From an uncultured Actinomycetota bacterium (GTDB lineage Bacteria; Actinomycetota; Acidimicrobiia; Spongiisociales; UBA5794), in the NCBI GenBank assembly GCA_963785245.1, contig CAWAUO010000004.1:314-64313 (forward strand): a stretch of DNA of 64,000 nucleotides. Reading direction: 5' to 3'. Below are positions 6,406-47,211 of the stretch, piece by piece. The number at the start of each line of letters is the position of its first letter. Within the stretch, counting starts at the first letter, position 1. Below the pieces are notes generated by a model. The model ran no database searches, was not told the origin of the DNA, and worked only from the letters and a program-made list of their open reading frames with translations. The translations under genes and the position numbers were made by a program.

Positions 6406-6435
6406 TTCGATTGACAGATTGTCAGTCGGTGCTGC

Positions 6436-7545
6436 CTAGGGGCAGACCGCCACGCTGCCAGCTTCGACGTCCTTGCACAGGTCGTCGACGCTGATCCAGC
6501 CAGCGGTGACGACGAGATCGAGGTTGTCCTGGGTGATCGGCTGCGGCGACAGGAGGATCGAGAACATCTCGTTCCCTTCCGGCGTCGTGAACTTGACCAT
6601 CGACGGAACATCTTCCATCGCGGTGCCGGCTGCGAGCAGTGCTGCAACTTCACCAGCGGTCTTGCCGAGGATCCGGGCGTCCTTCCACACCGACACGGTC
6701 TGCGAGCCGAGTGCGACGCGGTTCAGAGCGGCGCCGTCGCCGTCCTGACCCGAGACGGGAACAACACCGTCGAGGCCCTGTGCCGCCAGTGCGGCAACAA
6801 CGCCGCCAGCCGTGCCGTCGTTCGAGGCGACGACAGCCTGGACATCGTTGTCGAGTTCGGTCAGGAACTGCTCCATGTTGGTCTGTGCAACCTCAGGGGC
6901 CCAGTTGTCCGTGTAGGACTCGCCGACGATGACAACGTCACCGGCGTCGATGGCGTCCTGCAGGACCTCTTGCTGACCACCACGCAGGAAGTCTGCATTG
7001 GCGTCGGCAGCGTTGCCCTTGATCATGACGTAGTTCCCAGCCGGAACGGCTTCAAGGATCGCACGAGCCTGCATGCGGCCAACCTCAACGTTGTCGAACG
7101 TGATGTAGAACGCGTTCGGGTCTTCGATGAGACGGTCGTATGCGATGACCGGTATGCCCTGGTCAATCGCACTCTGTACGGCGGGCTTGATGGCCGTGCC
7201 GTCCTGAGCGAGGATGATCAGTGCCTGAGCGCCCTGAGAAATCAGGTTCTCAACGTCCGTGATCTGCTGCTCGACCGAGGAGCCGGCATCGGCGGAGATG
7301 TACGTGGCACCGGCGGCTTCAAGAGCTGCCTTGATGTCCGGCTCATCCCACTTCGCCCAACGCTCTTCGTTGTAGTTGTTCCACGACACGCCGACGATGA
7401 GCTCATCGCTCATGGCCTCGGTCGTCGTTGTCTCGTCCCCGCCGGCTGCGGCGGTCGTCGTCGTGTCATCGCTATCGCTGCTGCAGGCAGCAACGATCAT
7501 TGCGAACACGGCGAGCAAGACGAGAAGCTTGATGCTTCGCTTCAT
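6436..7545 (-). CDS. xylF: D-xylose-type ABC substrate-binding lipoprotein
   Basis: Lipobox IVAAC; SWNNYNEERW..D, AYDRLI, FDNVEVG, SGQDGD, QTVSVWKD are XylF-family motifs. Confidence 0.88.
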   Translation of the reverse strand: MKRSIKLLVLLAVFAMIVAACSSDSDDTTTTAAAGGDETTTTEAMSDELIVGVSWNNYNEERWAKWDEPDIKAALEAAGATYISADAGSSVEQQITDVENLISQGAQALIILAQDGTAIKPAVQSAIDQGIPVIAYDRLIEDPNAFYITFDNVEVGRMQARAILEAVPAGNYVMIKGNAADANADFLRGGQQEVLQDAIDAGDVVIVGESYTDNWAPEVAQTNMEQFLTELDNDVQAVVASNDGTAGGVVAALAAQGLDGVVPVSGQDGDGAALNRVALGSQTVSVWKDARILGKTAGEVAALLAAGTAMEDVPSMVKFTTPEGNEMFSILLSPQPITQDNLDLVVTAGWISVDDLCKDVEAGSVAVCP

Positions 7546-30778: not shown

Positions 30779-31240
30779 TCAGGGCCGATCGGGCAGATCA
30801 GGCGTGCGGCCCTCGAAGTAGGTGGCAAGGACCACCACCGTGCGGCTGCGACCAGGGGCGAACCGGCGAATGCTCTCGAGGACCTCGCCGAGATGGTCCG
30901 ACGAGCGGGCTCGGATCGTGAGGAGGAGATCGAACTCGCCGGTGACGGCGTAGCAGTCCTGCACGAAGGGGAGGGTCTCGACTGATTTCGCGACCTCGGC
31001 GAGAGGGAGACCGCCCGGCGCTTCGACGCTGACCATCGCGGTGACCGGAAGGCCGATGGCCTCCCAATCGATTGTGATCCGCGTGCCGGCAATCACGCCC
31101 TGTTCGGTGAGGCGGCGGACCCGCTGATGAACGGTGGTGGTCGCGACCCCCGTCAGTTCACCGATGCGGCGGTACGGAAGGCGGCCGTCCTCCGCGAGAA
31201 GGGCGATGATCTTCCGGTCAAGTTCATCCATGACGGACAT
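30779..31240 (-). CDS. Lrp/AsnC family transcriptional regulator
   Basis: MDELDRKIIALLAEDGR..., TVHQRVRRL, CYAVTGEFD; start may be 31231. Confidence 0.95.
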   Translation of the reverse strand: MSVMDELDRKIIALLAEDGRLPYRRIGELTGVATTTVHQRVRRLTEQGVIAGTRITIDWEAIGLPVTAMVSVEAPGGLPLAEVAKSVETLPFVQDCYAVTGEFDLLLTIRARSSDHLGEVLESIRRFAPGRSRTVVVLATYFEGRTPDLPDRP

Positions 31241-31457: not shown

Positions 31458-34400
31458 CTATCCGGCGTAGGCCGGCTGTCCGATCCGGGTGCCGGCGCCG
31501 TCCACGATCGGCAGGTAGGGCATCGACTCATCGAGTCCCTTCCAGACCGCAAACATGGTGGCTGCCGCGGCAAGCGTTACCGCGTCTCCATCCGACGCCG
31601 AGGCTCCCGGCGTTGCCGCCGTGAGTTCGAACGACTCGTCGAAGGATGCCGAGACCTCAGGCGACGAGTACTCGACAGTCCCGTTGATTGAGAGTCGATG
31701 GGTCTCGCCGTCGAACCGTGACAGCACCGTGACGACCTCGCCCTCCCGCTTCACCATGAAGGCGTTCGACGACTCCGCATCGAACTCCACGCGATCGAGG
31801 TACAGGCGGGGCTTGTCCTGGTACGGCTTGCCGGACGTCGGACACGCCGTCACGCAGTTTCCGCACTCGTTGCAGAAGTCCGAGAGCACTGCGATCTGAT
31901 GCGGCTGGTCGACCCGGAACCGGGTGCTGCCGTGCTCGACGAGTGTGCCGCCTTCCACCAGGAAAGACGGGAGATCGGCGACGAACGCCTTCGTCTGGTA
32001 CGTCATCAGCGCCATATTCGGGCACACCCCGACGCACAGACTGCAGATCGTGTCGCAGTCAACGCACCGACTCGCCTCGGCCTGCGCCTGCTCCGTCGTG
32101 TATGTCAGCATCGTCTCGTTGAAGTTGTCGCGTTCATTGAGTGGGGTGTGCACCGTCGGCACGCGATACTCGCGATGGGCGCGGCGCATCACCAGGCTCG
32201 GGAGGTCGCGCGTCGTCGGGATCGGCAGCGGCGTCGTGTCAACGACCGCGCCCGACACCGCGGCGACAATCGCTGCGGCTGCGGCCTGACCATCGGCGGC
32301 CGCCTTGACGATCGAGGACGGCCCGTCCGCCGCGACATCGCCACCGGCGTAGACGCCGGGGATCGACGACTCGAACGTTGTCGAATCGACCTCGATGTAG
32401 CCACGCGACGTCAGCACGGGCACGACGTCGCCGAAGAACTCGAGCATCGAATGCTGGCTGATCGCCAGGATGAGCGTGTCGAGCGGGATCTCGAACTCGG
32501 AGTCCTCGATGTCGTACGGGATCTTCCTGCCGGACGAGTCGCGATCGCCCCGGTACTCGGTCCGGGTTGCGATGAGTCCGACAAGTTTGCCGTCCTCGAC
32601 ATGCAGAGCGCTCGGGCTCGCCAGTTCCTCAATGGTGATGCCCTCTTCAAGGCACGCATGCACCTCTTCGCGATCAGCCGGCATCTGGTCGATGGTGCGG
32701 CGATAGATGATCGCCACATCGGTCGCGCCAACCCGCCATGCGGAACGCGCACAGTCCATGGCGGTGTCGCCTGCGCCGATCACGCCGACCCTGGGGCCGA
32801 CCGGGATCGGATCCTCCTCACGCACACTGCGCAGGAACCGTAGGGCATCGATGACGCCGTCGCTGTCCTCGCCCTCGACCCCGAGGAATTTCGGGAGCTG
32901 CGCGCCCACGGCGACGAACACTCGGTCGAAGCCGTCGGCCCGCAGGTCCTCGAGGGTGAAGTCCCGACCCGCTGTCTGGTTGTAGTGGATCTCGACACCG
33001 AGGTCCACGAGGATCGCCATGTCCTGGTCGATCTGCTCCTGCGGCAACCGGTAGGCGGGAATCGCTCCGCCGACCATGCCGCCCGGGTAGCTGTGGGCCT
33101 CGAAGATCGTCACCGTGGCGCCGGCGAGCGCCAGGTCTTGCGCCGCTGCGATGCCGGCAGGTCCAGCGCCGATCACCGCGACCTTGGCGTCGATCGCGGC
33201 CGTCCGCTCCGGTACCAGTGGTGAGGTCTCGTGCGACATGATGAACCGTTTCATATCCCTGATCGCCAGCGGCTGATCGAGGTGGGTACGGATGCACGTC
33301 GTCTCACAGAGGTGGTCGCACACCCGTCCGAGGATCGACGGAACCGGATTGTCGGCCCGCGTCAGGTTCACCGCATCGTCGAATCGACCTTCGCGAACGG
33401 CCCGCATGTAGGCGGGCACGTCCTGTGACACCGGGCATTCGTCGACGCAGGGGGCTTCGATGCAGTCGAACAGCCCCAGCTTCCGGCTGGTCTTCGATCG
33501 GTCGGTTCTGAATGATTCCTTGCGGTAGCGCCAGTCCTCCTGCACCTCTTGGGCATAGGAGCGCAGGTTTACCCTGGCAAGCGTTCGTAGCGCGAGCGAG
33601 GTCAGCGTCGCCGCCTGCTCCTCCGTGTAGTCGCGCTCCACCGCCCAGCGCTCGACGCTCTCCGACACGGGTCCGTGCCACTCGCCGCCGAGATAGGTAG
33701 CGAGTTCGTGCGCGTCCCTCAGCGTGAACGCCAGACCGCTGTCGCCGAGTGCCGCACCGGCCAGCATCTCGCTGAAGGCGGAGAAGTGGTGCTCGGCGAG
33801 CGCCGTGCATGCGGCAAAGTCCTTGAGATCGCACGCCTCGGTCTTGTCGAGCGCGTTGGCGAGTTCCTCGAGGTACTGCGGCATGCGCAGATAGCCGCCG
33901 GTCTTCAGGAGATCCGAACAGACCGTGATCGTGGTCATCCCCGACCGCAGGAGGCTGGTGACGTTGAACGCATCCGCACCACCGGCGAACGAGAGCAGGA
34001 GATCGCCGCGGAACTCCTCCGACAGGCGCAATGCGAGGTTGGTGGTCACGGCGTGGAGAGCCCGGCCCGACATGTACATCATGTCGTCGTCCGGGAACTC
34101 CATCCGATGGTTCTCGACCTCGAGGGTGTTCGAGAGCTTCAGCCCGAATGTCAGACCTTTGCTCCGCGCGATCCGCTTCAGGTTGTGGAACATCGGGACA
34201 GCATCCACGTACTTGAGGTCGTGGCCGAAGGCCTCGTCTGGGATCACGATGTCGCCGAATCCGAGTTCATCGTTGATGATCCCTCGGACGCGCTCGGCGC
34301 CGAGCAGGGTCGGGTTGCACTTGACGGACGTGTGCAGGCCGCGTTCCTGGAGAAGGTATGTGGTGATCTGCTCGATCTCTTCCGGCGGGCATCCGTGCAT

Positions 34401-35030
34401 GGTCGACAATGTCATGGTGCTGGAGATCCGGGCAGGGATCTCGACGTCCCGAACCTCGGGGTAGCGCTCGGCGACGATGTCGACGTACGGGCCGAGGTAC
34501 TCGGATGCGTCGTCCATCGTGTCGAGGTACCACTGGACGTTCGGCTCCAGGATCCCCTCCAGGTTGTAGCCAACGCTCATGTTGAAGATCATGCCCGGGG
34601 CGTCACCGGGGAATCCGAGCTTCTTGTGGAGCGCATGGATGAGCACCCAGGCGCGCAGGTACTCGTCGAACGACTGGTAGACCTTGAGCTCCTGCGACCA
34701 CTCGACGTTGTATCCCTCGTCTTCGAGGTCGATGCAGGGCTTGTTGACATCGAGTTCGTCGAGCGTCTGGACGGTCTTCAGCTCGATGAAGCGGGCACCG
34801 ACGAGCCACGCGACGATGATGTTCTGAGCCATCTGGGTGTGCGGGCCCGCGGCGACGCCAAACGGCGTATCGAGCGTGGTGCCGTAGTTCGGCTGGCGGA
34901 ATCGGTCGGCCTCGCTCGGCGTGAAGAACGCCCCTCGGGGGATTCCGAAGATCGAGTTGTTGGTCTCGAGTTCGTCGAACACCCAATCGGTGAGTTGCTC
35001 CATCGTGATGGGCTGGAAGCGGTCTGACAT
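31458..35030 (-). CDS. ygfK: YgfK-type Fe-S/flavin oxidoreductase (annotated putative selenate reductase subunit; purine catabolism)
   Basis: GVAAGPHTQMAQNI, ELKTVQ..D, KPCID..DEGYNVEWS, TLSTMHGCPPEEIE, GltD-like GAGPAG, CNECGNC. Confidence 0.92.
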   Translation of the reverse strand: MSDRFQPITMEQLTDWVFDELETNNSIFGIPRGAFFTPSEADRFRQPNYGTTLDTPFGVAAGPHTQMAQNIIVAWLVGARFIELKTVQTLDELDVNKPCIDLEDEGYNVEWSQELKVYQSFDEYLRAWVLIHALHKKLGFPGDAPGMIFNMSVGYNLEGILEPNVQWYLDTMDDASEYLGPYVDIVAERYPEVRDVEIPARISSTMTLSTMHGCPPEEIEQITTYLLQERGLHTSVKCNPTLLGAERVRGIINDELGFGDIVIPDEAFGHDLKYVDAVPMFHNLKRIARSKGLTFGLKLSNTLEVENHRMEFPDDDMMYMSGRALHAVTTNLALRLSEEFRGDLLLSFAGGADAFNVTSLLRSGMTTITVCSDLLKTGGYLRMPQYLEELANALDKTEACDLKDFAACTALAEHHFSAFSEMLAGAALGDSGLAFTLRDAHELATYLGGEWHGPVSESVERWAVERDYTEEQAATLTSLALRTLARVNLRSYAQEVQEDWRYRKESFRTDRSKTSRKLGLFDCIEAPCVDECPVSQDVPAYMRAVREGRFDDAVNLTRADNPVPSILGRVCDHLCETTCIRTHLDQPLAIRDMKRFIMSHETSPLVPERTAAIDAKVAVIGAGPAGIAAAQDLALAGATVTIFEAHSYPGGMVGGAIPAYRLPQEQIDQDMAILVDLGVEIHYNQTAGRDFTLEDLRADGFDRVFVAVGAQLPKFLGVEGEDSDGVIDALRFLRSVREEDPIPVGPRVGVIGAGDTAMDCARSAWRVGATDVAIIYRRTIDQMPADREEVHACLEEGITIEELASPSALHVEDGKLVGLIATRTEYRGDRDSSGRKIPYDIEDSEFEIPLDTLILAISQHSMLEFFGDVVPVLTSRGYIEVDSTTFESSIPGVYAGGDVAADGPSSIVKAAADGQAAAAAIVAAVSGAVVDTTPLPIPTTRDLPSLVMRRAHREYRVPTVHTPLNERDNFNETMLTYTTEQAQAEASRCVDCDTICSLCVGVCPNMALMTYQTKAFVADLPSFLVEGGTLVEHGSTRFRVDQPHQIAVLSDFCNECGNCVTACPTSGKPYQDKPRLYLDRVEFDAESSNAFMVKREGEVVTVLSRFDGETHRLSINGTVEYSSPEVSASFDESFELTAATPGASASDGDAVTLAAAATMFAVWKGLDESMPYLPIVDGAGTRIGQPAYAG

Positions 35031-35047
35031 CGGTCGGCTCCTCTCCG

Positions 35048-36070
35048 CTACAGGCGGGCGTGCAGACGGGCGGCCTGCTCTCGGGCTTTGGCTCTGATCT
35101 CCTCCGCGTCGACGCGCGTTGTGGTTCCGTTGGCGAATACGGCTTCTCCGTCGACCTTGACCTCCAATGGCCGGATGCCCGGGGTGAACGCGATGTGCCA
35201 CGGGTCCATCGGTTCATACGACCAGGTGACTTCATCGTTCAGCGCTCCAGGGACGAGCGTCCACCCGTTCTCGAGCCACGACCACGCCGGGTCGGGCCCG
35301 ACGGTCACGTCGACCGAGCGTTGCATGACGTACGCGAGGCGGAACGACTCGATCATGTTGGCGCCGATGCCGTCGGTGCCGAGCGCGACCGGGTTCCCGA
35401 AGCGTGCGGGATCGGCGTAACCGACCCCGTTGTTCAGGTTCGACCGCGGGTTGTGGAGGATCGTCCCCTTGAGCGTGTGATCGGTGGGGAGGAAGACGCA
35501 GTGGCTGATGAGCCACTTGTCGTTGGTGAGGCCTTCGAGTCGCTGCGGCGCACCGGCATCGCCTGGGCCTTCACAAACGTGAATGTGGACGCCGACATCG
35601 AACTCGTCGGCGAGGGCCGCGGCCGCCTCAAGCGACTCGTCGGTGCAAGTGAAGGCGGCGTGGACGCCAACCATGCCACTTCCGCCGGCGGCGAGGAACC
35701 GTCGGTTCTCTTCGAGGCCGCGAATCACACCGTCGTGACCGTGTCGGTCGCTGACGCCGTATGCGGTCACCACGCGGACGCCGACCTCATTGCAGGCGTC
35801 TTCAATGACGGAGAGCGACCCCTCGATGGCGTTTGGGGTCTCGTTGTGGTCGATGATCGCGGTCGTGCCGGATTCGAGCGCTTCGAGCGCACCGAGCTTC
35901 GCCGACCAGTAGAGCATGTCGAGGTCGAGTGCAGCGTCGAGCCGCCACCAGACCTGGTCGAGGATCCCCTGGAAGTCGGTGGCGACCTCCGGCGGTGCCG
36001 GCATGCCTCGTGCGAGTTCGGAGTAGAGGTGGTGGTGGGCGCAGACCAATCCCGGCGTGACGTTGCTCAT
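35048..36070 (-). CDS. ssnA: SsnA-like amidohydrolase
   Basis: CAHHHLYS.LARGM, WWRLD, GTTAIIDH, HIHVCE, HNPRSN.NN, LGTDG. Confidence 0.85.
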   Translation of the reverse strand: MSNVTPGLVCAHHHLYSELARGMPAPPEVATDFQGILDQVWWRLDAALDLDMLYWSAKLGALEALESGTTAIIDHNETPNAIEGSLSVIEDACNEVGVRVVTAYGVSDRHGHDGVIRGLEENRRFLAAGGSGMVGVHAAFTCTDESLEAAAALADEFDVGVHIHVCEGPGDAGAPQRLEGLTNDKWLISHCVFLPTDHTLKGTILHNPRSNLNNGVGYADPARFGNPVALGTDGIGANMIESFRLAYVMQRSVDVTVGPDPAWSWLENGWTLVPGALNDEVTWSYEPMDPWHIAFTPGIRPLEVKVDGEAVFANGTTTRVDAEEIRAKAREQAARLHARL

Positions 36071-38646
36071 GCGGTGCTCCTCTCGCGAAGCGGTTCGTGG
36101 ACGTTCATGGGCGTTCTCGTTCTGCGGATGCCGTCGACCTCGTAGAAGGCCGCGGCGATTGCTCCAGCGGTTGGCACGAGGCCGATCTCTCCGACGCCTT
36201 TGACCCCGAAGGGGGAGCGAGGCTGGGGGACCTCGACGATGATCGTCTCGACGTCCGGCATGTCCTTCGCCCGAATGATGCCGAGGCTGCGCAGCGTGTG
36301 CTTGGTCGGGCGAGCGAGGTCGTCGGTTGGGAACTCCTCGGTTAGCGCATAGCCGACACCCATGTGCACGGCTCCTTCGATCTGGCCCTCGACGAGACTC
36401 GGGTTGACCGCCCGCCCGACGTCGTGAGCGGCAACCATCTTCTCGATTGTGCCGGTCTCGGGATCGACGATCGCCACCTGCGCGGCATACCCGAACGCCG
36501 AGTGGATCGTTGGATTTTCAACGTCGTCCTCGAGCGAGTCGGTCCAGTCGACGACATACTCGCCGTAGTAGTCGATGCCGGGTGCGAAGCCGGCTTCCTT
36601 GGCGACGCGACAGGCATCAGCGACGCCGCCGGCGGCCATCACGGTGCCGCGGGAGCCGGTGGTCTGACCTGCGCCGAGCTCTCTTGTCGTGTCGACGATG
36701 ACGGTGATCCGGTTCGGGTCGACGTCAAGTTCCTCAGCCGCAACCTGAAGCGCGACATTGTGGACACCCTGGCCCATCTCCGTCCAGCAGTGACGCACTT
36801 CGATCGAACCGTCATCTTCGAGGCGGACGACGGCCTTGGAGACTTCGACGAAACCATTTCCGAGGCCCGAGTTCTTCAGGGCCACACCGAGACCGACGGC
36901 CTTGCCGTCCGCCCTGGCTTGGTCGTAGGCGGGCTTGATGGCGTCAAGGCATTCGCGGATACCACGGGAGCCGTCGTCCATGATCTGACCGGGGCCCCAC
37001 ACCACGCCGGGTTCGATGATGTTGCGGGATCGCATCTCCCAACCGTCGATCCCGACGGATTCGGCGAGTCGATCGACGATGCCCTCCATCGCGAACTGGG
37101 CCTGATTGGCACCGAAGCCGCGGAAGGCTCCGCAAACGGGATTGTTCGTGCGCACGGCGATCGCTTCCACGTCGATCGTGTCGACCACGTATGGACCGCT
37201 CATGTGACCAGCGGCCCGTTCGAGCACCTTCATCCCAACCGAGGCGTATGGACCGGAGTCGCCGATCATCCGGGACCGCAGCGCGGTGAGCTTGCCGTCG
37301 GCATCGCATCCGGCCCACACCTCGATCTCGATCGGATGGCGCTTGGCGTGGATGCGGAACGACTGCTCCCTGGTCAGCGTGCAAGAGACCGAACGCTCCA
37401 GCAGGTACGCGGCGAGCGCGGTCTGGCCCTGGTTCGACATGTCTTCCTTGCCGCCGAACGCTCCGCCGTTCGAGACAAGTTCGACGACGATGGTCGATGG
37501 GTCGACATCGAGCAGTGATGCAATCTGGTTTCGATCGTCCCAGATCCCCTGCCCTCCGGAGTACACGTGAAGGCCACCATCTCCGATCGGCACTGCAAGG
37601 GTGGACTCCGGTTCGAGGAATGCGTGCTCGACCCGCTGCGTCCGGAAGATCTCGTGCACCGTGTGTGCCGAAGCAGCGAGGGCAGCGTCTACGTCGCCGC
37701 GACGGTACGCCGAGCGAGAGAGGACGTTGCCTTCGAGACCCCAAACAGCATCCTCGCTCGAGGCGAGGGCGGTATGCGGGTCGGCGAACGGTTCGAGGAC
37801 GTTGTACTCGACCTCGACCAGTTCGGTGGCGGCGCGGGCGGTGCGCTTCGATTCGGCCACGACGATGGCGATCACATCGCCGTAGTACGAGGTCCGACCA
37901 CCCTCGGGGATGAAGACCGGCCAGTCCTCGTAGATGATGCCGACATGGAGTTTCCCCGGTACGTCGGCGCCGGTGAAGACGGCGACGACGCCTTCAAGCG
38001 CTTCCGCAGCGCTGGTGTCGATCCGCACCACGTCGGCCCTGGCGTGGTCGGTGAGGCGGAGCGCTCCGTGCAAGAGGCCCTCCGGGCGGATGTCATCGAC
38101 ATAGCCACGCTCGCCGAGTGCAAGTTCGACGCCTTCGTACTTCGCTCCGGTCACGCCGACACCGTCAGGGATCGACGGCGGGACGACGTCGCCGGACGCG
38201 AGGAGTTCGATCGCCTCGAAGATCTTGGTGTAGCCGGTGCAACGGCAGAGGTGCCCGCCGAGCCGACCCGCGGTGGTCTTGTGATCGAGGTCGGCGCCCT
38301 TCTGGTCGATGAGAGCCTTGGTGCGAACGAGGATCCCGGGCGTACAGAACCCGCACTGCAGCGCGCCGGTGGATGCGAAGGCGTCGGCCAGGCGTTGCCG
38401 CTCTGCCTCCTCGAACCCCTCCAGGGTTGAGACCGACTTGCCTTCCACCTTCTCCATCGAGACGAGACAACTCTGGATCGCCTTGCCTTCAACGAGGACG
38501 GTGCACGCTCCGCATTGGCCCGACGGTGAACAGCCGTCCTTCGGAGAGGTGATGCCGAGCTCTTCGCGCAAGGCGGAGAGGAGGTGTGGATGATCGGATG
38601 AGACCTCGACCGGGAGTCCATTGACGTTGAACGAAGTGGATTCCAT
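36067..38646 (-). CDS. Xanthine dehydrogenase-family molybdenum hydroxylase, fused 2Fe-2S + Mo domains (selenium-dependent Xdh type)
   Basis: KDGCSPSGQCGACT, QCGFCTPG, LCRCTGY, GGAFGGK, AFRGFG, KGVGE. Confidence 0.9.
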   Translation of the reverse strand: MESTSFNVNGLPVEVSSDHPHLLSALREELGITSPKDGCSPSGQCGACTVLVEGKAIQSCLVSMEKVEGKSVSTLEGFEEAERQRLADAFASTGALQCGFCTPGILVRTKALIDQKGADLDHKTTAGRLGGHLCRCTGYTKIFEAIELLASGDVVPPSIPDGVGVTGAKYEGVELALGERGYVDDIRPEGLLHGALRLTDHARADVVRIDTSAAEALEGVVAVFTGADVPGKLHVGIIYEDWPVFIPEGGRTSYYGDVIAIVVAESKRTARAATELVEVEYNVLEPFADPHTALASSEDAVWGLEGNVLSRSAYRRGDVDAALAASAHTVHEIFRTQRVEHAFLEPESTLAVPIGDGGLHVYSGGQGIWDDRNQIASLLDVDPSTIVVELVSNGGAFGGKEDMSNQGQTALAAYLLERSVSCTLTREQSFRIHAKRHPIEIEVWAGCDADGKLTALRSRMIGDSGPYASVGMKVLERAAGHMSGPYVVDTIDVEAIAVRTNNPVCGAFRGFGANQAQFAMEGIVDRLAESVGIDGWEMRSRNIIEPGVVWGPGQIMDDGSRGIRECLDAIKPAYDQARADGKAVGLGVALKNSGLGNGFVEVSKAVVRLEDDGSIEVRHCWTEMGQGVHNVALQVAAEELDVDPNRITVIVDTTRELGAGQTTGSRGTVMAAGGVADACRVAKEAGFAPGIDYYGEYVVDWTDSLEDDVENPTIHSAFGYAAQVAIVDPETGTIEKMVAAHDVGRAVNPSLVEGQIEGAVHMGVGYALTEEFPTDDLARPTKHTLRSLGIIRAKDMPDVETIIVEVPQPRSPFGVKGVGEIGLVPTAGAIAAAFYEVDGIRRTRTPMNVHEPLRERSTA

Positions 38647-38689
38647 GGTTGAGCCTCCTCTGATTCACCAACCGTATCATCCCCGTTCG

Positions 38690-38706
38690 GTTGACATTTT
38701 GTCAAC
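38690..38706. promoter_or_regulatory. Palindromic operator / -35 upstream of the xdh operon
   Basis: GTTGACATTTTGTCAAC: perfect 7-bp arms with 3-bp spacer. Confidence 0.75.
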
Positions 38707-38771
38707 TCGCGGGACCGGCGGTCCTGCAGGCGCCACGCGCTACAGTCAGCCCGAGCTAGACCGGAGGGTCG

Positions 38772-39017
38772 ATGCCCGGATATCGCGCGGAGTTCATGGT
38801 CGAACCCTTTGTTGAGGGCTCCCTTGGTCCGCCCGTGGTGGCGGCGGTCGATGCAGTGGCGGCACACGGATTCGAGCCGAACGTTGATGCGTTTGGCACC
38901 TCGATTGCAGGAGACGCCGAATCGGTGGTGGCAGCGCTCGCCGACATGCTGCACGCGGCGATGGGGGCCGGTGCGACGAGAGTCACCGTCCAGGTCGAGT
39001 GCCGCAGCGAATCGTGA
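38772..39017 (+). CDS. Small thiamine-binding/YkoF (DUF77)-like protein
   Basis: 81 aa; EFMVEPF...VDAFGTSIAG...GATRVTVQV suggests a ferredoxin-like fold; overlaps the next gene (GTGA). Confidence 0.65.
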   Translation: MPGYRAEFMVEPFVEGSLGPPVVAAVDAVAAHGFEPNVDAFGTSIAGDAESVVAALADMLHAAMGAGATRVTVQVECRSES

Positions 39018-39376
39018 ACCCGAACGGCCACCCCGTCATTGTGGCGACCCGCCCGGCCATCGAGGCGACCGGTGCCACCGTCGTGGCACCATCCGAAGCC
39101 GGGGCCCTCGACGTGCCGGTCGAATGGGAGGGCGAGGTCGTCGCCTATGTGCGGGTCGGTTCGCTCGCCGACGCGCTGGGCAATCTGGTGACACGGATCG
39201 AAGAGGAGCTCGGTGCTCCACTCCCGGAACTCGACCGCACGGGCAAACAGGTTGCAGTTCGGTTGCTCGACGAGCGCGGGGCCTTCCTCCTGCGGAGGTC
39301 GATCGAGGACATCGCCGACCTGATGGGTGTGAGCCGAATCACGATCTACAACTATCTGAATGCGATCCGAATATGA
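39014..39376 (+). CDS. HTH protein (YheO/DauR C-terminal HTH_22-like)
   Basis: KQVAVRLLDERGAFLLRRSIEDIADLMGVSRITIYNYLN. Confidence 0.85.
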   Translation: MNPNGHPVIVATRPAIEATGATVVAPSEAGALDVPVEWEGEVVAYVRVGSLADALGNLVTRIEEELGAPLPELDRTGKQVAVRLLDERGAFLLRRSIEDIADLMGVSRITIYNYLNAIRI

Positions 39377-39402
39377 GGGCTCGAGTGTTCGGGGCGTACG
39401 AT

Positions 39403-39431
39403 TTGACATTTCGTCAACGGAGGAGAATGCT
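39403..39431 (+). promoter_or_regulatory. Second operator copy overlapping a sigma70-type promoter of the ABC operon
   Basis: TTGACATTTCGTCAA; TTGACA-N17-AATGCT. Confidence 0.7.
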
Positions 39432-39482: not shown

Positions 39483-40694
39483 ATGAGTGTCAACCTCAGT
39501 CACCAGCAGCGGCGGATCCTGGCGTACAGCATCCCCGTCCTCGCGGTCTTCGCTGCACTCCTCTTCGGCGCGATCATGCTGGTTCTGCTCGGCGCCAACC
39601 CGATCGAGGGCTACTCCGAGATGTTCGTCGGGGCCTTCGGATCCGGCAACGCGCTGATCGCGACGATCCTCAAGGCGACTCCGCTCCTGTTCGTCGGTAC
39701 CGGCATCGTGATCGCGTTCCGTGCGAACGTCATCAACATCGGCGCCGAGGGCCAGATGGTGCTCGGCGGCCTCTTCGCCACCATGGCGGCTCTCTACCTC
39801 CCGGACCTCCCTGCGATCATCATGGTTCCGGTGATTCTGCTGGCGGGCCTCGCCGGCGGCGCCCTCTGGGGTTGGATCCCCGGCATGCTCAAGGCGTACT
39901 ACCGGGTCAACGAGATCCTCAGCACGATCATGCTGAACATCGTCGCCGTGCAGTTGATGAGCTATCTGCTACGTGGTCCGCTCATCGACCCCGCCGAGAT
40001 CGAGAAGGGCACCCGGATCCCGCAGACCGAGCGCCTCATGGAGTCCGCCGACCTGCCCATCATCTTCGGCGACCGATTCCACATCGGGCCGATCCTTGCC
40101 GTCCTCTGCGCCATCGCTACCTACTACCTGCTGTGGCGGACACCCCTCGGCTACCGCCTCCGAGCCGTCGGTCTCAGCGAGCACGCCGCCCGCTACGCCG
40201 GCATCCCGGTGCGCAGGACGATCGCTCTCGCCCTAACGATGTCGGGCGCACTCGCCGGTCTTGCCGGCGCGGTCCTGGTGTTCGGCAGCGAGAGCCACCG
40301 CATGGTGACCGACGGTTCCACGATGGGGTTCACGGGGAGCGCCGGCTTCAACGGCATCGTCGCCGCTCTGCTTGGTGGCCTCCATCCCCTCTGGACGATT
40401 CCGGCGTCGTTCCTCTTCGGTGGTCTCATCGTCGGTGGCCAGGCACTGCAGCGTGCCGTGCAGGTTCCTTCAGCGCTCATCGTTGCGCTGAACGGTCTGG
40501 TCGTCATCTTCGTCGTCGCGGCTGATCGCTACCGGGTGAAACTCCTCACGACCGACGGTCGCGATGAGGAGATTGCTGACGACGGCAGCATGCCCCTCGA
40601 TGACGACGATTCGGCGCTCGGTTCGGTGTATGACGCCGCGCCCAGAGGGACTGAATCATATGGTCAGGACGAGTTCGGGGAGGATCCCCGATGA
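39483..40694 (+). CDS. Nucleoside/purine ABC transporter permease
   Basis: NIGAEGQ, NEILSTIMLN, GFNGIVAALLG. Confidence 0.92.
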   Translation: MSVNLSHQQRRILAYSIPVLAVFAALLFGAIMLVLLGANPIEGYSEMFVGAFGSGNALIATILKATPLLFVGTGIVIAFRANVINIGAEGQMVLGGLFATMAALYLPDLPAIIMVPVILLAGLAGGALWGWIPGMLKAYYRVNEILSTIMLNIVAVQLMSYLLRGPLIDPAEIEKGTRIPQTERLMESADLPIIFGDRFHIGPILAVLCAIATYYLLWRTPLGYRLRAVGLSEHAARYAGIPVRRTIALALTMSGALAGLAGAVLVFGSESHRMVTDGSTMGFTGSAGFNGIVAALLGGLHPLWTIPASFLFGGLIVGGQALQRAVQVPSALIVALNGLVVIFVVAADRYRVKLLTTDGRDEEIADDGSMPLDDDDSALGSVYDAAPRGTESYGQDEFGEDPR

Positions 40695-41623
40695 GTGAGG
40701 TATTCACCACCGCCGTGATGGTCGCCGTACTCGCTTCCGCCATCCGCCTCGCGGTTCCGCTTCTGCTGGCCGCGCTTGGTGAGACCTTCGGACAGCGAAG
40801 CGGTGTCCTCAACCTCGGCGTCGACGGCATCATGCTTCTCGGCGCCTTCACCGGCTACTACGCCGTGCTCAAGACCGACAACGTCTGGCTCGGACTGCTC
40901 GCCGGAGCGATCGTTGGTCTGATCCTCGGCCTCGCCTCGGCGGTGATTGCGGTGACGCTCAAGGCCGAGCAAGGGATCAGCGGCATCGGCGTCTTCCTGT
41001 TCGGCCTCGGGATGAGCGACCTGCTGTTCCAGAAGCTCGTCGGCACACCGATCCCGATCAGTCAGTTCCCGCAACTGGACATCCCGCTACTCTCAGATAT
41101 CCCGTACATCGGGGAGATCTTCTTCCAGCACAGCCTCGTCATCTATCTCGCGTTCCTGTCGATCCCGGTCGCGACATTCGTCATCAACCGCACGACATTC
41201 GGCATGAAGATCCGGGCTGTCGGCGAATACCCGGACGCCGCCGACACACTCGGTGTGAGCGTCGCCGGCGTGCGCTATGCAACCGAGATCATCGGCGGCA
41301 CTCTGGCCGGTATCGCCGGCGCCGTGCTGGCCATCACGCTGGGAATCTTCCAGCAGAACCTCACAAACGGCGCCGGATTCATCGCCATTGCACTCGTCTA
41401 CTTCGGTGCATGGCGCCCGACGGGCATCATGCTCGGCGCACTTCTTTTTGGTTTCGTCAACGCGCTGGTGCTGGAGCTGAAGACACAGGAGATCATTCCG
41501 AGAGATCTTTCCAACATCGCGTCGATGGCACCTGCAATCATCACCATCTTGGCTCTGGTTCTTGTGGCCCGTCGCTTCCGTGCGCCGTCCGCTCTGACCA
41601 AGCCATTCACAAGAGGGAAGTAA
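40691..41623 (+). CDS. Nucleoside/purine ABC transporter permease
   Basis: RSGVLNLGVDG, RAVGEYPDAADTLG, GFIAIALVYFGAW. Confidence 0.92.
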   Translation: MSEVFTTAVMVAVLASAIRLAVPLLLAALGETFGQRSGVLNLGVDGIMLLGAFTGYYAVLKTDNVWLGLLAGAIVGLILGLASAVIAVTLKAEQGISGIGVFLFGLGMSDLLFQKLVGTPIPISQFPQLDIPLLSDIPYIGEIFFQHSLVIYLAFLSIPVATFVINRTTFGMKIRAVGEYPDAADTLGVSVAGVRYATEIIGGTLAGIAGAVLAITLGIFQQNLTNGAGFIAIALVYFGAWRPTGIMLGALLFGFVNALVLELKTQEIIPRDLSNIASMAPAIITILALVLVARRFRAPSALTKPFTRGK

Positions 41624-41661
41624 GTGGCCGTCTACAGCGGCCAACAGTCAAGGAGGAAGCA

Positions 41662-42627
41662 GTGAAGAGAAGAAGTATCACGCTGATCGTGCTGATTGCA
41701 GCGTTGGCGCTGGTTGGCGCCGCTTGCAGCAGCGACGACGTCGGCGGGGACGATTTCAAGGTTGCGGTCATCGCGCCGTCCGCATCGAACGACCTGGCAT
41801 TCACCCAGTCGATGGTTGATGCCGCGAACAAGCTGGTGGAAGACGGAGTCATCGGCGAGGTCGCCGTCACCGACGGTACGTTCGTGGTCGAAGACGCCGC
41901 GGTCGCCATCCGCGACTACGCCGCGGAGGGCTACAACCTGGTGATCGCACACGGTTCCCAGTACGGAGGTTCACTCCAGGAGATCGCACCGGACTTCCCG
42001 GAAGTCTCCTTCGCCTGGGGCACGGCCGCCGACACCTTCGGCCTCCCGAACGTCTTCTCGTATGAAGCCGCGTCGGATCAGGGTGGACGAGTCATGGGAA
42101 TCATGGCTGCGGCCCTTTCGCAGTCGGACAACGTCGGCATCGTGGGACCGATCGAGGTCGGCGACGCGAAGCTCTACGTCGACGGATTCGAAGCCGGCGT
42201 GCTCATCCAGAAGCCGGGTGCCACGGTCAACATCAACTACATCGACTCGTTCAGCGACGTTGCGCTGGCTTCCGAGGCAGCGCAGTCGCTCATCAGCGCC
42301 GGTGCGGACGTGCTGTCCGGCACCGCCCAGATGACGGTCGGCGCGGTCGGCGTTGCCAAGACCGAAGGCGTGGCGTGGTTCGGCACCCAGTCGAATCAGA
42401 CGAGCCTTGCCCCGGAGATCGTGGTTGCATCCCAGGTCTATCACTGGGAGCACATGCTCGAAGAGATGATCGGCAAGATCGGTGACGGCACGCTCGGTGG
42501 TGAGCTCTACAAGATCACCTTCGCGAACGAAGGACTGGTCATCGAGTTCAACGACGACTACCCGCTGCCGGACGATGTGAAGCAGCTCGGCGAGGACGCC
42601 ATCAAGGTCTTCGAAGACGAGGGCTGA
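41662..42627 (+). CDS. BMP family ABC substrate-binding lipoprotein
   Basis: AAGGAGG RBS, lipobox LVGAAC, NDLAFTQS, YAAEGYNLVIAHG. Confidence 0.92.
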   Translation: MKRRSITLIVLIAALALVGAACSSDDVGGDDFKVAVIAPSASNDLAFTQSMVDAANKLVEDGVIGEVAVTDGTFVVEDAAVAIRDYAAEGYNLVIAHGSQYGGSLQEIAPDFPEVSFAWGTAADTFGLPNVFSYEAASDQGGRVMGIMAAALSQSDNVGIVGPIEVGDAKLYVDGFEAGVLIQKPGATVNINYIDSFSDVALASEAAQSLISAGADVLSGTAQMTVGAVGVAKTEGVAWFGTQSNQTSLAPEIVVASQVYHWEHMLEEMIGKIGDGTLGGELYKITFANEGLVIEFNDDYPLPDDVKQLGEDAIKVFEDEG

Positions 42628-42637
42628 GTAGGAACAA

Positions 42638-42673
42638 GGCCGGTCGGGGGATCGATGGATCCCCCGACCGGCC
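42638..42673 (+). terminator. Long stem-loop after the BMP gene
   Basis: GGCCGGTCGGGGGATC-GATG-GATCCCCCGACCGGCC 16-bp perfect stem; no U tract, so probably an mRNA stabiliser. Confidence 0.75.
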
Positions 42674-42688
42674 GAACAGGAGTGATGC

Positions 42689-44266
42689 GTGACGGTTAGC
42701 CCGATGCTCGAGATGCGGGGAATCACCAAACGGTTCCCGGGTGTGATCGCGAACAGCGACGTCGACTTCGACCTGTACGCGGGTGAGGTCCACGCGCTGC
42801 TCGGAGAGAACGGCGCAGGCAAGAGCACGCTCATGAAGGTCCTCTACGGGTTGTATCCGCCCGACGAGGGGACCATCACGATCGACGGTGAACTGGTGAC
42901 GATCGACAGCCCGAACGCTGCGATCGACCTCGGGGTCGGCATGATCCACCAGCACTTCATGCTGGTCCCCACGCTGACTGTTGCCGAGAACGTGGCACTG
43001 GGCCTGCCGTCGAGCCGCGGCTTCATCACCGACCTCGACGTTGTCTCGAAGCGCATCGTTGAGTTGGCCGGCCAATACGGGCTCGAGGTCGATCCATCGG
43101 CTCTCGTGTGGCAGCTCTCGGTCGGTGAGCGACAGCGGGTCGAGATTATCAAGGCTCTCTATCGCGAGGCCCAACTGCTCATCCTCGACGAGCCGACCGC
43201 GGTGCTGACGCCGCAAGAGGTCGATCAGCTGTTTGTCACGCTCCGTCAGCTCACGGCCGACGGTCGCGGCCTGATCTTCATCTCGCACAAGCTGCACGAG
43301 GTCTTGGCCCTGAGTGATCGTATCACGGTACTGCGCCACGGTGCGGTGACCGGTGAGGTTCCGACCGAAGGCGCCACCCGCGAGAGCCTCGCCAATATGA
43401 TGGTTGGTCGGCAGGTGAAGCTGAGTCCCGACCGATTGCCGGCTGAGCCGGGCGACGTCGCGCTCGAGATTCGGGACTTGACGGTTATGGGTGACCGCGG
43501 TCTCGTCGCCGTTGACGGCCTGAGCCTCGACGTCCGCAAGGGCGAGATCCTCGGAATCGCTGGCGTATCCGGCAACGGTCAGCGCGAGATGGCCGAGACG
43601 ATCGCCGGCCTGCGCGAAGCCAAGGACGGCACCATCAAGATCGAGGGAACGGATGTCACGAACGCGCTGCCGCTGAAGGTCAGGCAGGCCGGACTCGCCT
43701 ACGTTCCGGAGGAGCGTATGCGAGAAGGCGCCATCGCCGACTTCACCGTGTGGGAGAACCTGCTGCTCATCGACTACGCAAGTTCTGACTATCTGAAGGC
43801 CGGCCTGTTCGACTTTGGGAAGATCAAGGATCATTCCAACGAGTTGGTGGAGTCCTTCGACATTCGCACGCCGTCGATCGAGACCTCATGCGGAAGTCTC
43901 TCGGGTGGAAACATCCAGAAAGTCATCATGGCCAGGGAGCTGTCATCTTCTCCGGTTGTGCTGGTGGCATCGCAACCGACCCGCGGCGTCGACATCGGCG
44001 CGGCCGAGTACATCCACCGTCGCCTGATCGACAAGCGCAACAAGCTGACCGACGCTGAGTTCATCCAGCAGAAACTGATCGAGCACCGCACCGCGATGAC
44101 GGCCGTATTGATGATCTCGGAGGATCTTGACGAGATCTTCGGTTTGTCGGATCGGATTGCGGTGATGTACGAAGGCAAGATCATCGGCATCGTCGATCCA
44201 GAGGCGGCGACCCGCGAGGAAGTCGGCCTGATGATGGCGGGCGTCGCCAAGGCCGAGCCGGCCTGA
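42689..44266 (+). CDS. ABC transporter ATP-binding protein (CUT2, two domains)
   Basis: [34 protein letters not shown]. Confidence 0.94.
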
Positions 44267-44323
44267 CCGAACGGTCCTTCGCACCGGCGTGTTCATCGTG
44301 CGGTGCCTCTACGCTGGCTCCTG

Positions 44324-46078
44324 ATGGCCTACTCGCGTGAAGATATCGACCGGGTTCGGGAACGCACCGATCTCGTGGAACTCGCCTCCGAGGTGACCCG
44401 GGTCAAGCGCTCGGGACGCTCGGTGATGGCCGTCTGCCCGTTCCACTCCGAGAAGACCCCATCGCTCTCCATCGATCCGGCCCGGGGACTGTTCCACTGC
44501 TTCGGATGTGGCAAGAGCGGCGACGTGTTCGGCTGGGTCCAGGAGACACAAGGCCTCGGCTTCTCCGATGCACTCGAACTCCTCGCCAGGCGCGTGGGTG
44601 TCGCCCTGACCGTCGATCCGGAGGCGGCGAAGCACCGGGATCGGCGTGAACGGCTGATCGACGCCGTCGAGCGGTCGGTGGCGTTCTACCGCGACCGGCT
44701 CAAGGCCGGCAGCGACGCCGGCCACGCTCGCGGCTATCTGCGGAGTCGTGGCTACGACGCGGACGTCGTCGACCGGTTCCATCTCGGATACTCGCCCGAG
44801 GCCTGGGACACGCTGGTGAACCATCTGCGTGACGCCGGTGTGAAGGACGAGGCGATGACCGCCGCGGGTCTCGCATCCCGATCTCGCCGTGGCGGTCTCG
44901 TCGATCGTTTCCGGAATCGGCTCATGTTCCCGATCTACGACGTACGAGGCGATGCGGTGGGATTCGGCGCCCGCCTCCTCGACGGCGATGGACCCAAGTA
45001 CCTGAACTCCCCTGAGACCCCGATCTATCACAAATCTCGCCTGCTCTACGGGCTGAACTGGGCGAAGTCCCAGATCGTGCGCGCTGATGAGTCGGTCGTG
45101 GTCGAGGGCTATACCGACGTGATCGCATTCCACCTCGCAGACATGCCGGTCGCGGTTGCAACCTGCGGTACGGCCTTGGGGGAAGAGCATCTCGATCTGC
45201 TCCGTCGCTTCTCGAAGAAGGTCGTTCTCGCATTCGATGCCGACGAGGCGGGCGCAGGTGCCGCCGAGCGCGGTTTTGAGCGCTCCGTCCCCGGTGATCT
45301 CGACCTTCGTGTCGCGGTCCTTCCCGAGGGCCGGGACCCCGCCGATCTCGTCGCCGATGGCCAACTCGATGCGCTGAGGGCAGCCATCGACTCATCGGCA
45401 CCCTTGCTGCAGTTCCGGATCGATCGGGAACTGGCCGGGTTCAACCTCGACGAACCTGAGGCCCGGGGACGCGCCGTGCGGGCTGCGGCGGCGCTCATTG
45501 CACTCCATCCCGACCCGGTTGTACGTCACGAATACGCGGTCCTCGTGACGCGTCGGACCGGTGTGGATGTCCCGACGGTCGAGTCTGCCCTCCGCGGTTC
45601 CGGTCGACCGGCCGCCGCCGCGCCGCCCCCGCTCGATGAGACGAGTTTGACCGGTCCGCAACGCACGGAGCGCGAGGTTCTCAGGCTGTTCCTGGCGAAC
45701 GATACGGCGATCCGTTCGCTCGACGTCTCCGCCGATCTGTTTTCCGAACCAGCGTATCGCTCGGCATTCGAGGTGATCTCCGAACTGGTTGAGCCGCTCG
45801 AACCCGGGATCGTTCCCGACCTCGGCGCGACGATCGGCTCCGACGATCTACCGGAGGGCGCCTTGCTCCGATCGCTGGCGCTGCAGCAGCGGCCACTCGC
45901 CGAGGCTTCCGATGTGATGAAACGCCTCAAGCAGGAGGCGGTTGAGCGCCGAATTGAACAAGTGCAGGGCGAACTCGCCGCTGTCGACGCCGACGCCGAC
46001 CCACAGGGGTATTCAGAACAGTTCGAACGCCTGATAGCGTTGCAGAACGAACGCAGGGAATTGCGGAGCAGGGAATGA
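44324..46078 (+). CDS. dnaG: DNA primase
   Basis: [10 protein letters not shown]...HCFGC zinc finger, [21 protein letters not shown]. Confidence 0.97.
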
Positions 46079-47211
46079 ACGAGATTGTCCGAATCGTGCT
46101 CGAGGAGCTGACGGCCAGGGGCCGCCAGCGCGGCTTCCTCGTCATGACCGAGGTCCAGCAGGAACTCGAAGAGGTCGGGGCTCCGGACGAGTCATTCGAC
46201 GCCGTATTCCTGGCACTGCGAGAGGAACGCATTCCGATCCGCGAGGACTCCGCCAACAGCCTCGCTGCCACCAACCTCTCGAACGATGAACTCGTTCATG
46301 TGTCCGACCCGGTCCGCATGTACCTCCAGGAGATCGGCCGTTTCCCGCTGCTCACTCCGCAGCAGGAGGTCGAACTCGCCATGCAGGCCGAGGCTGGCAC
46401 TCGCGCCGAGGAACAAATCGAGGAGGGATCGAAGCTTGCGCCCGCAGACCGGATCATCATCGAACGCACCGTCCGCAACGGGGACAAGGCCCGCAAACGA
46501 CTGGTCGAAGCCAACCTGAGGCTCGTCGTCTCGATCGCCAAGAAATACATCGGGCGCGGCCTCAGCCTGCTCGACCTCATTCAGGAGGGCAACCTCGGAC
46601 TGATCCGGGCCGTCGAGAAGTTCGACTACCGGAAGGGTTTCAAGTTCTCGACCTACGCAACGTGGTGGATCCGCCAGGCGGTGACGCGAGCACTCGCCGA
46701 CCAGGCTCGCACCATCCGGGTGCCCGTCCACATGGTCGAGACGATCAACAAGCTCGCGCGCACGCAACGCACACTCATGCAGGAACTCGGCCGGGATCCG
46801 ACGATCGAGGAGATCGCCGAGGAACTCGAACTCGATCCGGACAAGGTCACCGAACTCCGCCGCATCGCCCAGGACCCGGTGTCGCTGGAGACGCCACTCG
46901 GCGAAGAGGACGATTCGACGCTTGGTGACTTCGTCGAAGACACGGATGCGGAGATCCCGATTGATGTCGCGGCGTTCCATCTACTCCAGAGCTACCTGAG
47001 TCTGGCCCTTGAAGCCCTGAATGACCGCGAACGCGATGTGCTCGTCATGCGCTTCGGTCTCGCCGACGGCAAGGTTCGCACGCTCGAAGAGGTCGGTGAC
47101 CACTTCCACGTCACCAGGGAGCGCATCCGTCAAATCGAGACCAAGGCGCTCGCAAAGCTACGCCAGCCGGCCCGCGCACGGAAGCTCGAGGGCTACCTCG
47201 AAGGCGCTTGA
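46075..47211 (+). CDS. rpoD: Primary RNA polymerase sigma factor
   Basis: [42 protein letters not shown]. Confidence 0.96.

Follow-up and report, generated by a model that had tools for sequence, protein, structure and literature searches.

A putative split DUF77-HTH_22 regulator and its candidate palindromic operator at urate-degradation genes of Acidimicrobiia

A 64,000-nt stretch of the genome of an uncultured Actinomycetota bacterium (GCA_963785245.1, contig CAWAUO010000004.1, positions 314 to 64,313 of the forward strand; hereinafter the window, to which all coordinates refer), with the GTDB lineage Bacteria; Actinomycetota; Acidimicrobiia; Spongiisociales; UBA5794, carries two small overlapping genes that encode a protein of the DUF77/MTH1187 family and a helix-turn-helix (HTH) protein with an HTH_22 domain. 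The pair is bracketed by two near-identical palindromes and lies between the xdhD-ssnA-ygfK operon, on one side, and an operon for a Bmp-type ATP-binding cassette (ABC) importer, on the other side. The explanation that we favor, with a probability of roughly 0.7, is that the two proteins are subunits of one transcription factor which binds the palindrome and represses the operons of the urate pathway until it is released by a metabolite. We infer all the components of this scheme, namely DNA binding, the contact between the subunits, repression rather than activation, and the identity of the ligand.

The candidate operator sites (no strand assigned) are TTGACATTTTGTCAA at 38691-38705, a perfect palindrome in the divergent intergenic region between xdhD and the regulator genes, and TTGACATTTCGTCAA at 39403-39417, 66 bp upstream of the start codon of the first ABC permease gene. 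Both 15-mers, which were pointed out in a preliminary description of this DNA, were recovered at these positions; they are 712 bp apart, with the two small genes in between. They are the only exact matches to TTGACANNNNGTCAA within the window and the only exact matches to TTGACA-N4-GTCAA in the entire 2,657,913-base assembly of the window's own genome. When one mismatch is allowed, the assembly contains 14 strand-matches compared to 5 for the reversed control. With the pattern loosened further (≤2 mismatches), the 8 strand-matches in the window are at chance frequency (8.38 expected from shuffles), and therefore only the exact form is informative. The minus-strand half of site 1 coincides with the -35 element of a predicted sigma-70-like promoter of xdhD (38676..38705, minus strand), which consists of TTGACA at 38705-38700, an 18-nt spacer and the -10 hexamer GATGAT at 38681-38676; it matches the consensus in 10 of 12 positions and was the one site found by the promoter scan, against a shuffle mean of 0.2. 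Site 1 and the CGTATCAT block, which corresponds to the -10 region of this promoter, stand out as islands of conservation at all five closely related loci, and site 2 is retained in the imperfect form TTTGACAwTTCGTCAA in 4 of 4. A third near-match with a single mismatch, TTGACAGATTGTCAG, occurs at 6411-6425, adjoining a GC-rich hairpin, between a Peripla_BP_4 gene (6436-7545, minus strand) and a BPD_transp_2 permease gene (4985-6325, minus strand) of a sugar-type ABC operon; this one is probably a chance occurrence because the reversed control gives two such matches genome-wide.

The presence of the palindrome follows that of the gene pair across genomes. Among 201 evenly drawn genomes of the class Acidimicrobiia, 54 encode an XdhD orthologue. 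The HTH gene occurs in 42 of these 54 and in none of the 147 xdhD-negative genomes (these figures are given as counts, and the Fisher value is not relied on, because kinship among the compared genomes makes 2x2 statistics overstate the case). All 13 other HTH-positive genomes tested contain the exact site, like the genome of the window itself, and it is missing genome-wide in all 12 xdhD-positive, HTH-negative genomes, four of which belong to the window's own family; the 12 xdhD loci of these genomes contain no site even at ≤1 mismatch. At two HTH-negative loci (L083 and L086), xdhD is divergent from the Bmp operon as in the window, with no regulator gene between them. A conserved palindrome at promoters that tracks the putative factor in this manner is what would be expected of the operator of a one-component regulator.

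The motif itself was examined in wide regions around the HTH gene in 20 genomes (393,572 nt in total) of families other than f14 (Ilumatobacteraceae, going by the attached names). In these 20 loci, the pattern TTKACA-N3-TGTMAA has 15 exact matches and 28 at ≤1 mismatch, compared to 0 and 0 for the reversed pattern and to means of 0 and 0.45 in 20 Markov simulations. Of the 20 loci, 17 have at least one site with ≤1 mismatch; the majority of the 28 sites are intergenic, in front of operons. The logo of 61 distinct sites reads TT[G/T]ACA-www-TGT[C/A]AA, with the spacer AAA or TTT in 59% and unconserved flanks; at three loci (L051, L054 and L059), there are tandem sites 22 bp apart. According to Pfam matches, the genes that recur at the 20 loci encode XdhD-like and SsnA-like enzymes, CN-hydrolases, an M20 peptidase (YgeY-like), two PALP enzymes (YgeX-like), an OTC-like protein (YgeW-like), carbamate kinase, classical xanthine dehydrogenase, adenosine/cytidine-type deaminases and Bmp transporters. 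Thus, both the conservation of the motif at homologous loci (28 sites at ≤1 mismatch vs 0 reversed) and the link of the pair to purine catabolic genes (xdhD in all 42 HTH-positive genomes, and the recurrent gene set), on which the preliminary description had staked its proposal, are borne out. Genome-wide scans of 13 HTH-positive genomes place 21 of 27 exact sites at urate/purine-pathway loci. In five f14 genomes, all eight exact sites found genome-wide are located 27-57 bp upstream of xdhD, of an M20-CN-hydrolase-xdhD-ssnA operon or of a PALP1-PALP2 operon.

The first gene of the pair (38772..39017, plus strand) encodes an 81-amino acid (aa) protein, the proposed sensor/assembly subunit, which belongs to the DUF77/MTH1187 family, i.e., Pfam Thiamine_BP (PF01910; E 2.9e-9, 37.2 bits, cutoff 24.9), and covers positions 1-73 of the 92 in the profile. 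Comparison of the DUF77 alignment profile with the PDB retrieved 1yqh, 1vk8, 1lxn and 2eky (E 2e-7 to 1e-4; 1.9e-7 for 1yqh); YkoF was a weak match (E 0.33). The residues E7, F8, E11, P12, F13, G42 and R70 are invariant in the subfamily. The second gene (39014..39376, plus strand) encodes a 120-aa protein, the proposed DNA-binding subunit, with an HTH_22 domain (PF13309; E 1.7e-17, 63.6 bits, cutoff 29.6) in its C-terminal half; the HTH_22 match is shared by all 34 aligned homologues. No match to PAS_6 (PF08348) was detected in the 120-aa protein at E≤10 (all 17 matched families listed), and this domain is absent among the 25 families that are commonest across the 34 aligned HTH_22 members (E≤10). 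The GTG start codon at 39014 overlaps the TGA stop codon (39015-39017) of the 81-aa gene within the sequence GTGA. The initial characterization of the two genes, with a thiamine-binding-like protein encoded upstream of an HTH_22 protein that lacks a full YheO-type PAS domain, is accordingly upheld; the overlap would couple their translation, as suggested there. NCBIfam contains no family for either of the window proteins or for two fused homologues (see below).

The AlphaFold2 (AF2) model of the HTH protein has a predicted local distance difference test score (pLDDT) of 93.9 and a predicted TM score (pTM) of 0.76. In the model, an N-terminal alpha-beta3-alpha domain (helix 7-18; strands 22-24, 34-38 and 41-47; helix 51-66), in which G20 and D33 are nearly invariant, is followed by the three helices of the C-terminal helix-turn-helix. 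No solved relative of this protein was found by sequence or, at E≤0.001, by a Foldseek comparison with the PDB; the VIA wide search with the model gave nothing better than middling matches (Z up to 5.7), which involved generic HTH domains and residues 50-120 of the protein, with the N-terminal domain barely covered. The ferredoxin-like DUF77 fold (beta-alpha-beta-beta-alpha-beta) was observed in the model of a homologue, the fused protein P0129, rather than in one of the window protein itself. The first domain of P0129 has the predicted elements E12-20, H29-40, E45-48, E51-57, H58-74 and E79-85, and matches 2eky, 1yqh, 1lxn and 1vk8 in Foldseek (E 2e-5 to 7e-4); the VIA comparison of this domain gave Z scores of 8.6-10.5. 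The complete P0129 model has a pLDDT of 89.7 and a pTM of 0.55, and therefore its domain arrangement is not settled. In the wide search with the fused model, the alignments of solved DUF77 chains run past the first domain and reach the middle one (ranges from 11-124 to 9-142), but with a root mean square deviation of 4.5-5.8 A, and fold complementation is taken as no more than a hint. A likeness of the fused model to the tandem ACT domains of aspartokinase regulatory subunits was weak (E 3e-3 to 1.5e-2, TM ~0.25) and was set aside.

The two genes are rarely separated, and the almost obligatory co-occurrence agrees with the initial proposal that their products act together. A DUF77 match directly precedes the HTH gene at 27 of 30 loci in the class and at 71 of 80 loci from different species; among 98 such pairs, the overlap is 4 nt long in 61 and 1 nt long in 7. 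In all five HTH-positive genomes searched with the DUF77 profile, exactly one copy was found, beside the HTH gene, and none was found in any of five xdhD-positive, HTH-negative genomes. An exhaustive profile-free search yielded 507 relatives (E≤0.001), and domain scans of 22 longer ones (180-270 aa) identified both Thiamine_BP and HTH_22 in 16 at E≤0.001, with 10 above the Pfam cutoff for Thiamine_BP. The long homologues align collinearly, end to end, with both window proteins, the DUF77 part being the first. In a protein-atlas cluster of 71 members, HTH_22 is present in 100% and Thiamine_BP in 63%. These fusions come from metagenome proteins; a search of the 201 Acidimicrobiia genomes with one of them, P0137, detected no true fusions. 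Given the collinear fusions, the DUF77 and HTH_22 genes appear to be the split form of a fused regulator. At two loci of family f17 (L213 in G156 and L214 in G072), the HTH_22 gene continues the reading frame of the DUF77 gene after a single stop codon (TGA or TAG), so that the two are one substitution short of the fused form. At L048 and L049, the DUF77 gene is found 1.5-8.6 kb from the HTH gene. A second HTH_22 paralogue in genome G110 (L059, on contig C6 of that genome) has no adjacent DUF77 gene and is located beside two CN-hydrolase genes, with tandem palindromes; in this organism, two HTH proteins might share a single DUF77 partner.

Both neighbors of the pair, which had been recognized in the preliminary description as an xdh-ssnA-ygfK operon and a BMP-type ABC importer, were verified by Pfam and TIGR matches. 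On the minus strand, the first gene of the target operon (36067..38646) encodes an xdhD-like molybdopterin/2Fe-2S oxidoreductase (TIGR03311, 807 bits, just below the cutoff of 830), and is followed by genes for an ssnA-like amidohydrolase (35048..36070; Pfam/NCBIfam matches) and a ygfK-like Fe-S flavoenzyme (31458..35054; TIGR03315, 911 bits, cutoff 835; the open reading frame is open to 35201, and the start quoted is the one that abuts ssnA). According to the published description, XdhD, YgfK and SsnA catalyze the opening steps of reductive uric-acid degradation, in which XdhD reduces urate to isoxanthine, and YgfK and SsnA dearomatize and open the ring; the word 'regulator' does not occur in that paper (10.1101/2025.05.19.654654). 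On the plus strand, the Bmp/PnrA-type importer operon (39483..44266) consists of genes for two BPD_transp_2 permeases (39483-40694 and 40691-41623), a Bmp binding protein that ends at 42627, and an ATPase (42689-44266). Directly after the ATPase gene, the window contains dnaG (primase) and a gene for a principal sigma-70-type factor (44303-47211); dnaG occupies the same position in a genome of the same genus. An AsnC/Lrp-family regulator gene (30779-31240, minus strand) lies just downstream of ygfK and does not recur at the annotated related loci. A single in-frame TGA codon is present within the XdhD match of three genomes (G110, G174 and G075).

Outside the class, 44 genomes in a phylum sample of 401 (including the unpublished genome G449) contain a match. 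In 7-10 Mb genomes of one genus of another actinobacterial family, full-length homologues of both genes are located directly upstream of uricase-pathway genes, and thus a gene pair beside uricase genes, which had previously been mentioned for Streptomyces, does exist in large-genome actinomycetes. The order in these loci is OHCU decarboxylase, HIU hydrolase, uricase, amidohydrolase and xanthine/uracil permease, with the pair divergent from hyi-glxR-gcl-type genes. In four other families, the HTH gene is found beside genes for classical XDH or for PALP/OTC-like/carbamate kinase proteins. At four loci of the large-genome actinomycetes (L201, L202, L204 and L206), the hyi/DUF77 intergenic region contains a conserved TTCCG-N-A-N-TGCGGAA-like inverted repeat together with a TTGTCAAG block; a different regulator, one that controls the glyoxylate/allantoin genes, might bind here.

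Under the proposed mechanism, the 81-aa and 120-aa proteins would be two subunits of one factor, the split equivalent of a DUF77-linker-HTH_22 polypeptide, and translational coupling would supply them in equal (1:1) amounts. A dimer, or a dimer of dimers, would bind the 15-bp palindrome TT(G/T)ACA-N3-TGT(C/A)AA, with the HTH_22 part, as a dimer, reading the two 6-bp half-sites that are 9 bp apart; the DUF77 part would be responsible for ligand sensing and, probably, for oligomerization. In the window genome, the predicted targets are the xdhD-ssnA-ygfK promoter and the region in front of the Bmp-type importer operon. The factor most likely would be a repressor that is released when a purine-pathway metabolite binds to the ferredoxin-like sensor part. 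Urate is the most economical guess for this ligand because it is the substrate of XdhD and the metabolite that is common to the uricase context. A more specific version, in which DUF77 is a trans-acting sensor that completes the truncated sensor domain of the HTH_22 protein via a beta-sheet across the interface, and in which one urate-responsive repressor is common to the reductive pathway of Acidimicrobiia and the oxidative, uricase pathway of Streptomyces-like bacteria, is tentative and considerably less likely than not to hold in full.

The assignment of ligand sensing to the DUF77 subunit has a competitor, which is improbable. The HTH_22 protein could bind the palindrome and sense the ligand via its own N-terminal domain, in which case the DUF77 protein would be an obligatory structural or oligomerization subunit, or an accessory that carries the metabolite. 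Residues 1-66 of the HTH protein indeed form a confidently modeled fold of their own and are conserved (G20, D33), the second paralogue in G110 has tandem sites and no DUF77 gene next to it, and at L048 and L049 the two genes are apart. However, the DUF77 subfamily has an invariant motif of its own, and its gene is kept with the HTH gene and is not found where the latter is missing. Furthermore, YkoF is a small-molecule binder with the DUF77-family fold, albeit a weak match here. Sensing through the DUF77 part, therefore, remains the preferred version.

With regard to the sign of regulation, repression is favored because site 1 covers the predicted -35 element of xdhD, and because the sites are close to start codons, either overlapping them or at distances of no more than about 30-65 bp. 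The opposite scheme, with the palindrome supplying or extending the -35 element and the bound factor recruiting RNA polymerase when purines are present, appears somewhat less probable still than sensing by the HTH subunit. It is compatible with the identity of each half-site to the consensus -35 hexamer, with the location of site 1 about 36-50 bp upstream of a -10-like hexamer, TACAGT, in front of the regulator genes, and with the tandem arrangement at L051, L054 and L059. However, the palindromes of the f14 genomes (8 of 8) are only 27-57 bp from the start codon and the xdhD palindrome covers the predicted -35, positions that are typical of steric repression; moreover, catabolic operons for scarce substrates usually are derepressed by the substrate.

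Apart from the kinship of the compared genomes, several observations weigh against a repressor that acts through this palindrome. The preliminary description had each palindrome overlapping a TTGACA -35 element; the promoter scan supports this for xdhD, and reported neither a promoter nor a -10 element for the ABC operon at site 2. Three of the 20 loci (L048, L049 and L060) have no site at ≤1 mismatch; of these, L048 and L049 contain the shifted variant TTCAACA-N3-TGTTGAA or a similar one, and L060 has none. In family f14, the pair has a conserved gene neighborhood of an unrelated kind, and no site is found close to it. The second purine cluster of the window genome (contig C6, about 24-47 kb), which encompasses genes for PALP1-like, carbamate kinase and OTC-like proteins, classical XDH subunits and an amidohydrolase, shows no palindrome even at 2 mismatches, and therefore the downstream half of the pathway seems to be differently controlled in this genome. 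In six uricase-type loci outside the class, no TTGACA-type palindrome was detected upstream of the pair, and therefore the operator assignment holds for Acidimicrobiia only. Finally, six of the 27 exact sites in the genome-wide scans are exceptions, and therefore the pattern is not exclusive to the factor encoded by the pair: three sites in G023, where the purine locus itself has only a 1-mismatch site, are in TetR-gene divergons, and three of the six sites in G079 are before serA, before purL and in an unannotated place. The G023 divergons (L221-L223) contain paired TTGACA-N3-TGTCAA-like sites ~34 bp apart, next to a TetR gene with a Polyketide_cyc2 or alpha/beta hydrolase gene, two of the three divergons being near-identical copies; this looks like a different factor with a look-alike operator. 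The G079 sites at L226 and L224, which closely precede a purS-purL-type FGAM synthase gene and serA, respectively, are exact palindromes and could reflect either an extension of the regulon into purine biosynthesis or chance in a genome of lower GC content. That the palindrome belongs to a regulator other than the pair, while the pair controls something else, as its context in f14 might suggest, is very improbable. Such a regulator could be a TetR-type protein like those of G023 or the AsnC-family protein encoded next to ygfK in the window; however, none of the other regulator genes is found repeatedly among the 20 annotated loci, and all 12 xdhD-positive genomes without the pair are devoid of the motif.

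DUF77/MTH1187 is a structural-genomics family, the role of which is unassigned in most organisms, and in databases the homologues of the two window proteins are labeled only "helix-turn-helix domain-containing", "YqgV" or "thiamine-binding". If correct, the present assignment would provide a concrete role for a DUF77/MTH1187 subfamily and for short HTH_22 proteins, and would yield the first candidate regulator, together with its operator and a predicted regulon, for the reductive uric-acid pathway in the abundant aquatic Acidimicrobiia. The uricase loci of the large-genome actinomycetes offer a culturable test bed. The occurrence of a sensor/DNA-binding module in both split and fused forms is useful for understanding the assembly of one-component regulators, and the module might also become a part for a purine or urate biosensor. 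Searches of the full-text literature, with subscription journals mostly outside their range, turned up no published description of a DUF77/Thiamine_BP-HTH_22 regulator, its operator or its regulon, and literature searches likewise turned up no operator or purine regulon for the YheO family.

Among the known systems, regulators of the YheO type (PAS_6, PF08348, joined to HTH_22, PF13309) resemble the window protein in having a C-terminal HTH_22 domain with a sensor part N-terminal to it; in the window protein, however, PAS_6 is replaced by a short alpha-beta3-alpha domain and by a separate or fused DUF77 domain. The 81-aa protein shares the profile and the fold of the MTH1187/YkoF/YqgV family (DUF77, UPF0045) but is shorter, contains the subfamily motif EF-VEPF, which is absent from 1yqh in the alignment, and belongs to a subfamily that invariably comes with an HTH_22 partner; no link to thiamine was found. 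Control of xanthine, urate and allantoin catabolic operons is a property that the pair would share with HucR, PecS and MftR (MarR family), PucR, XdhR (TetR family) and AllR (IclR family), of which the HucR-type repressors are released by urate. These regulators, however, come from unrelated protein families and all are single polypeptides; to our knowledge, none of them has been reported for the XdhD-YgfK-SsnA reductive pathway. In the Lrp/AsnC family, a ligand module of the beta-alpha-beta-beta-alpha-beta type (RAM) is combined with a helix-turn-helix and is sometimes encoded as a stand-alone small protein, so that a small ligand-binding module coupled to a helix-turn-helix and sometimes separately encoded is common to both systems. 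The pair nevertheless is not a member of the Lrp/AsnC family: its small module is DUF77 rather than RAM, its DNA-binding domain is HTH_22 rather than a winged helix, and in the fusions the sensor precedes the DNA-binding part. We classify the pair as a putative one-component regulator that is naturally split and has a sensor module of a new type.

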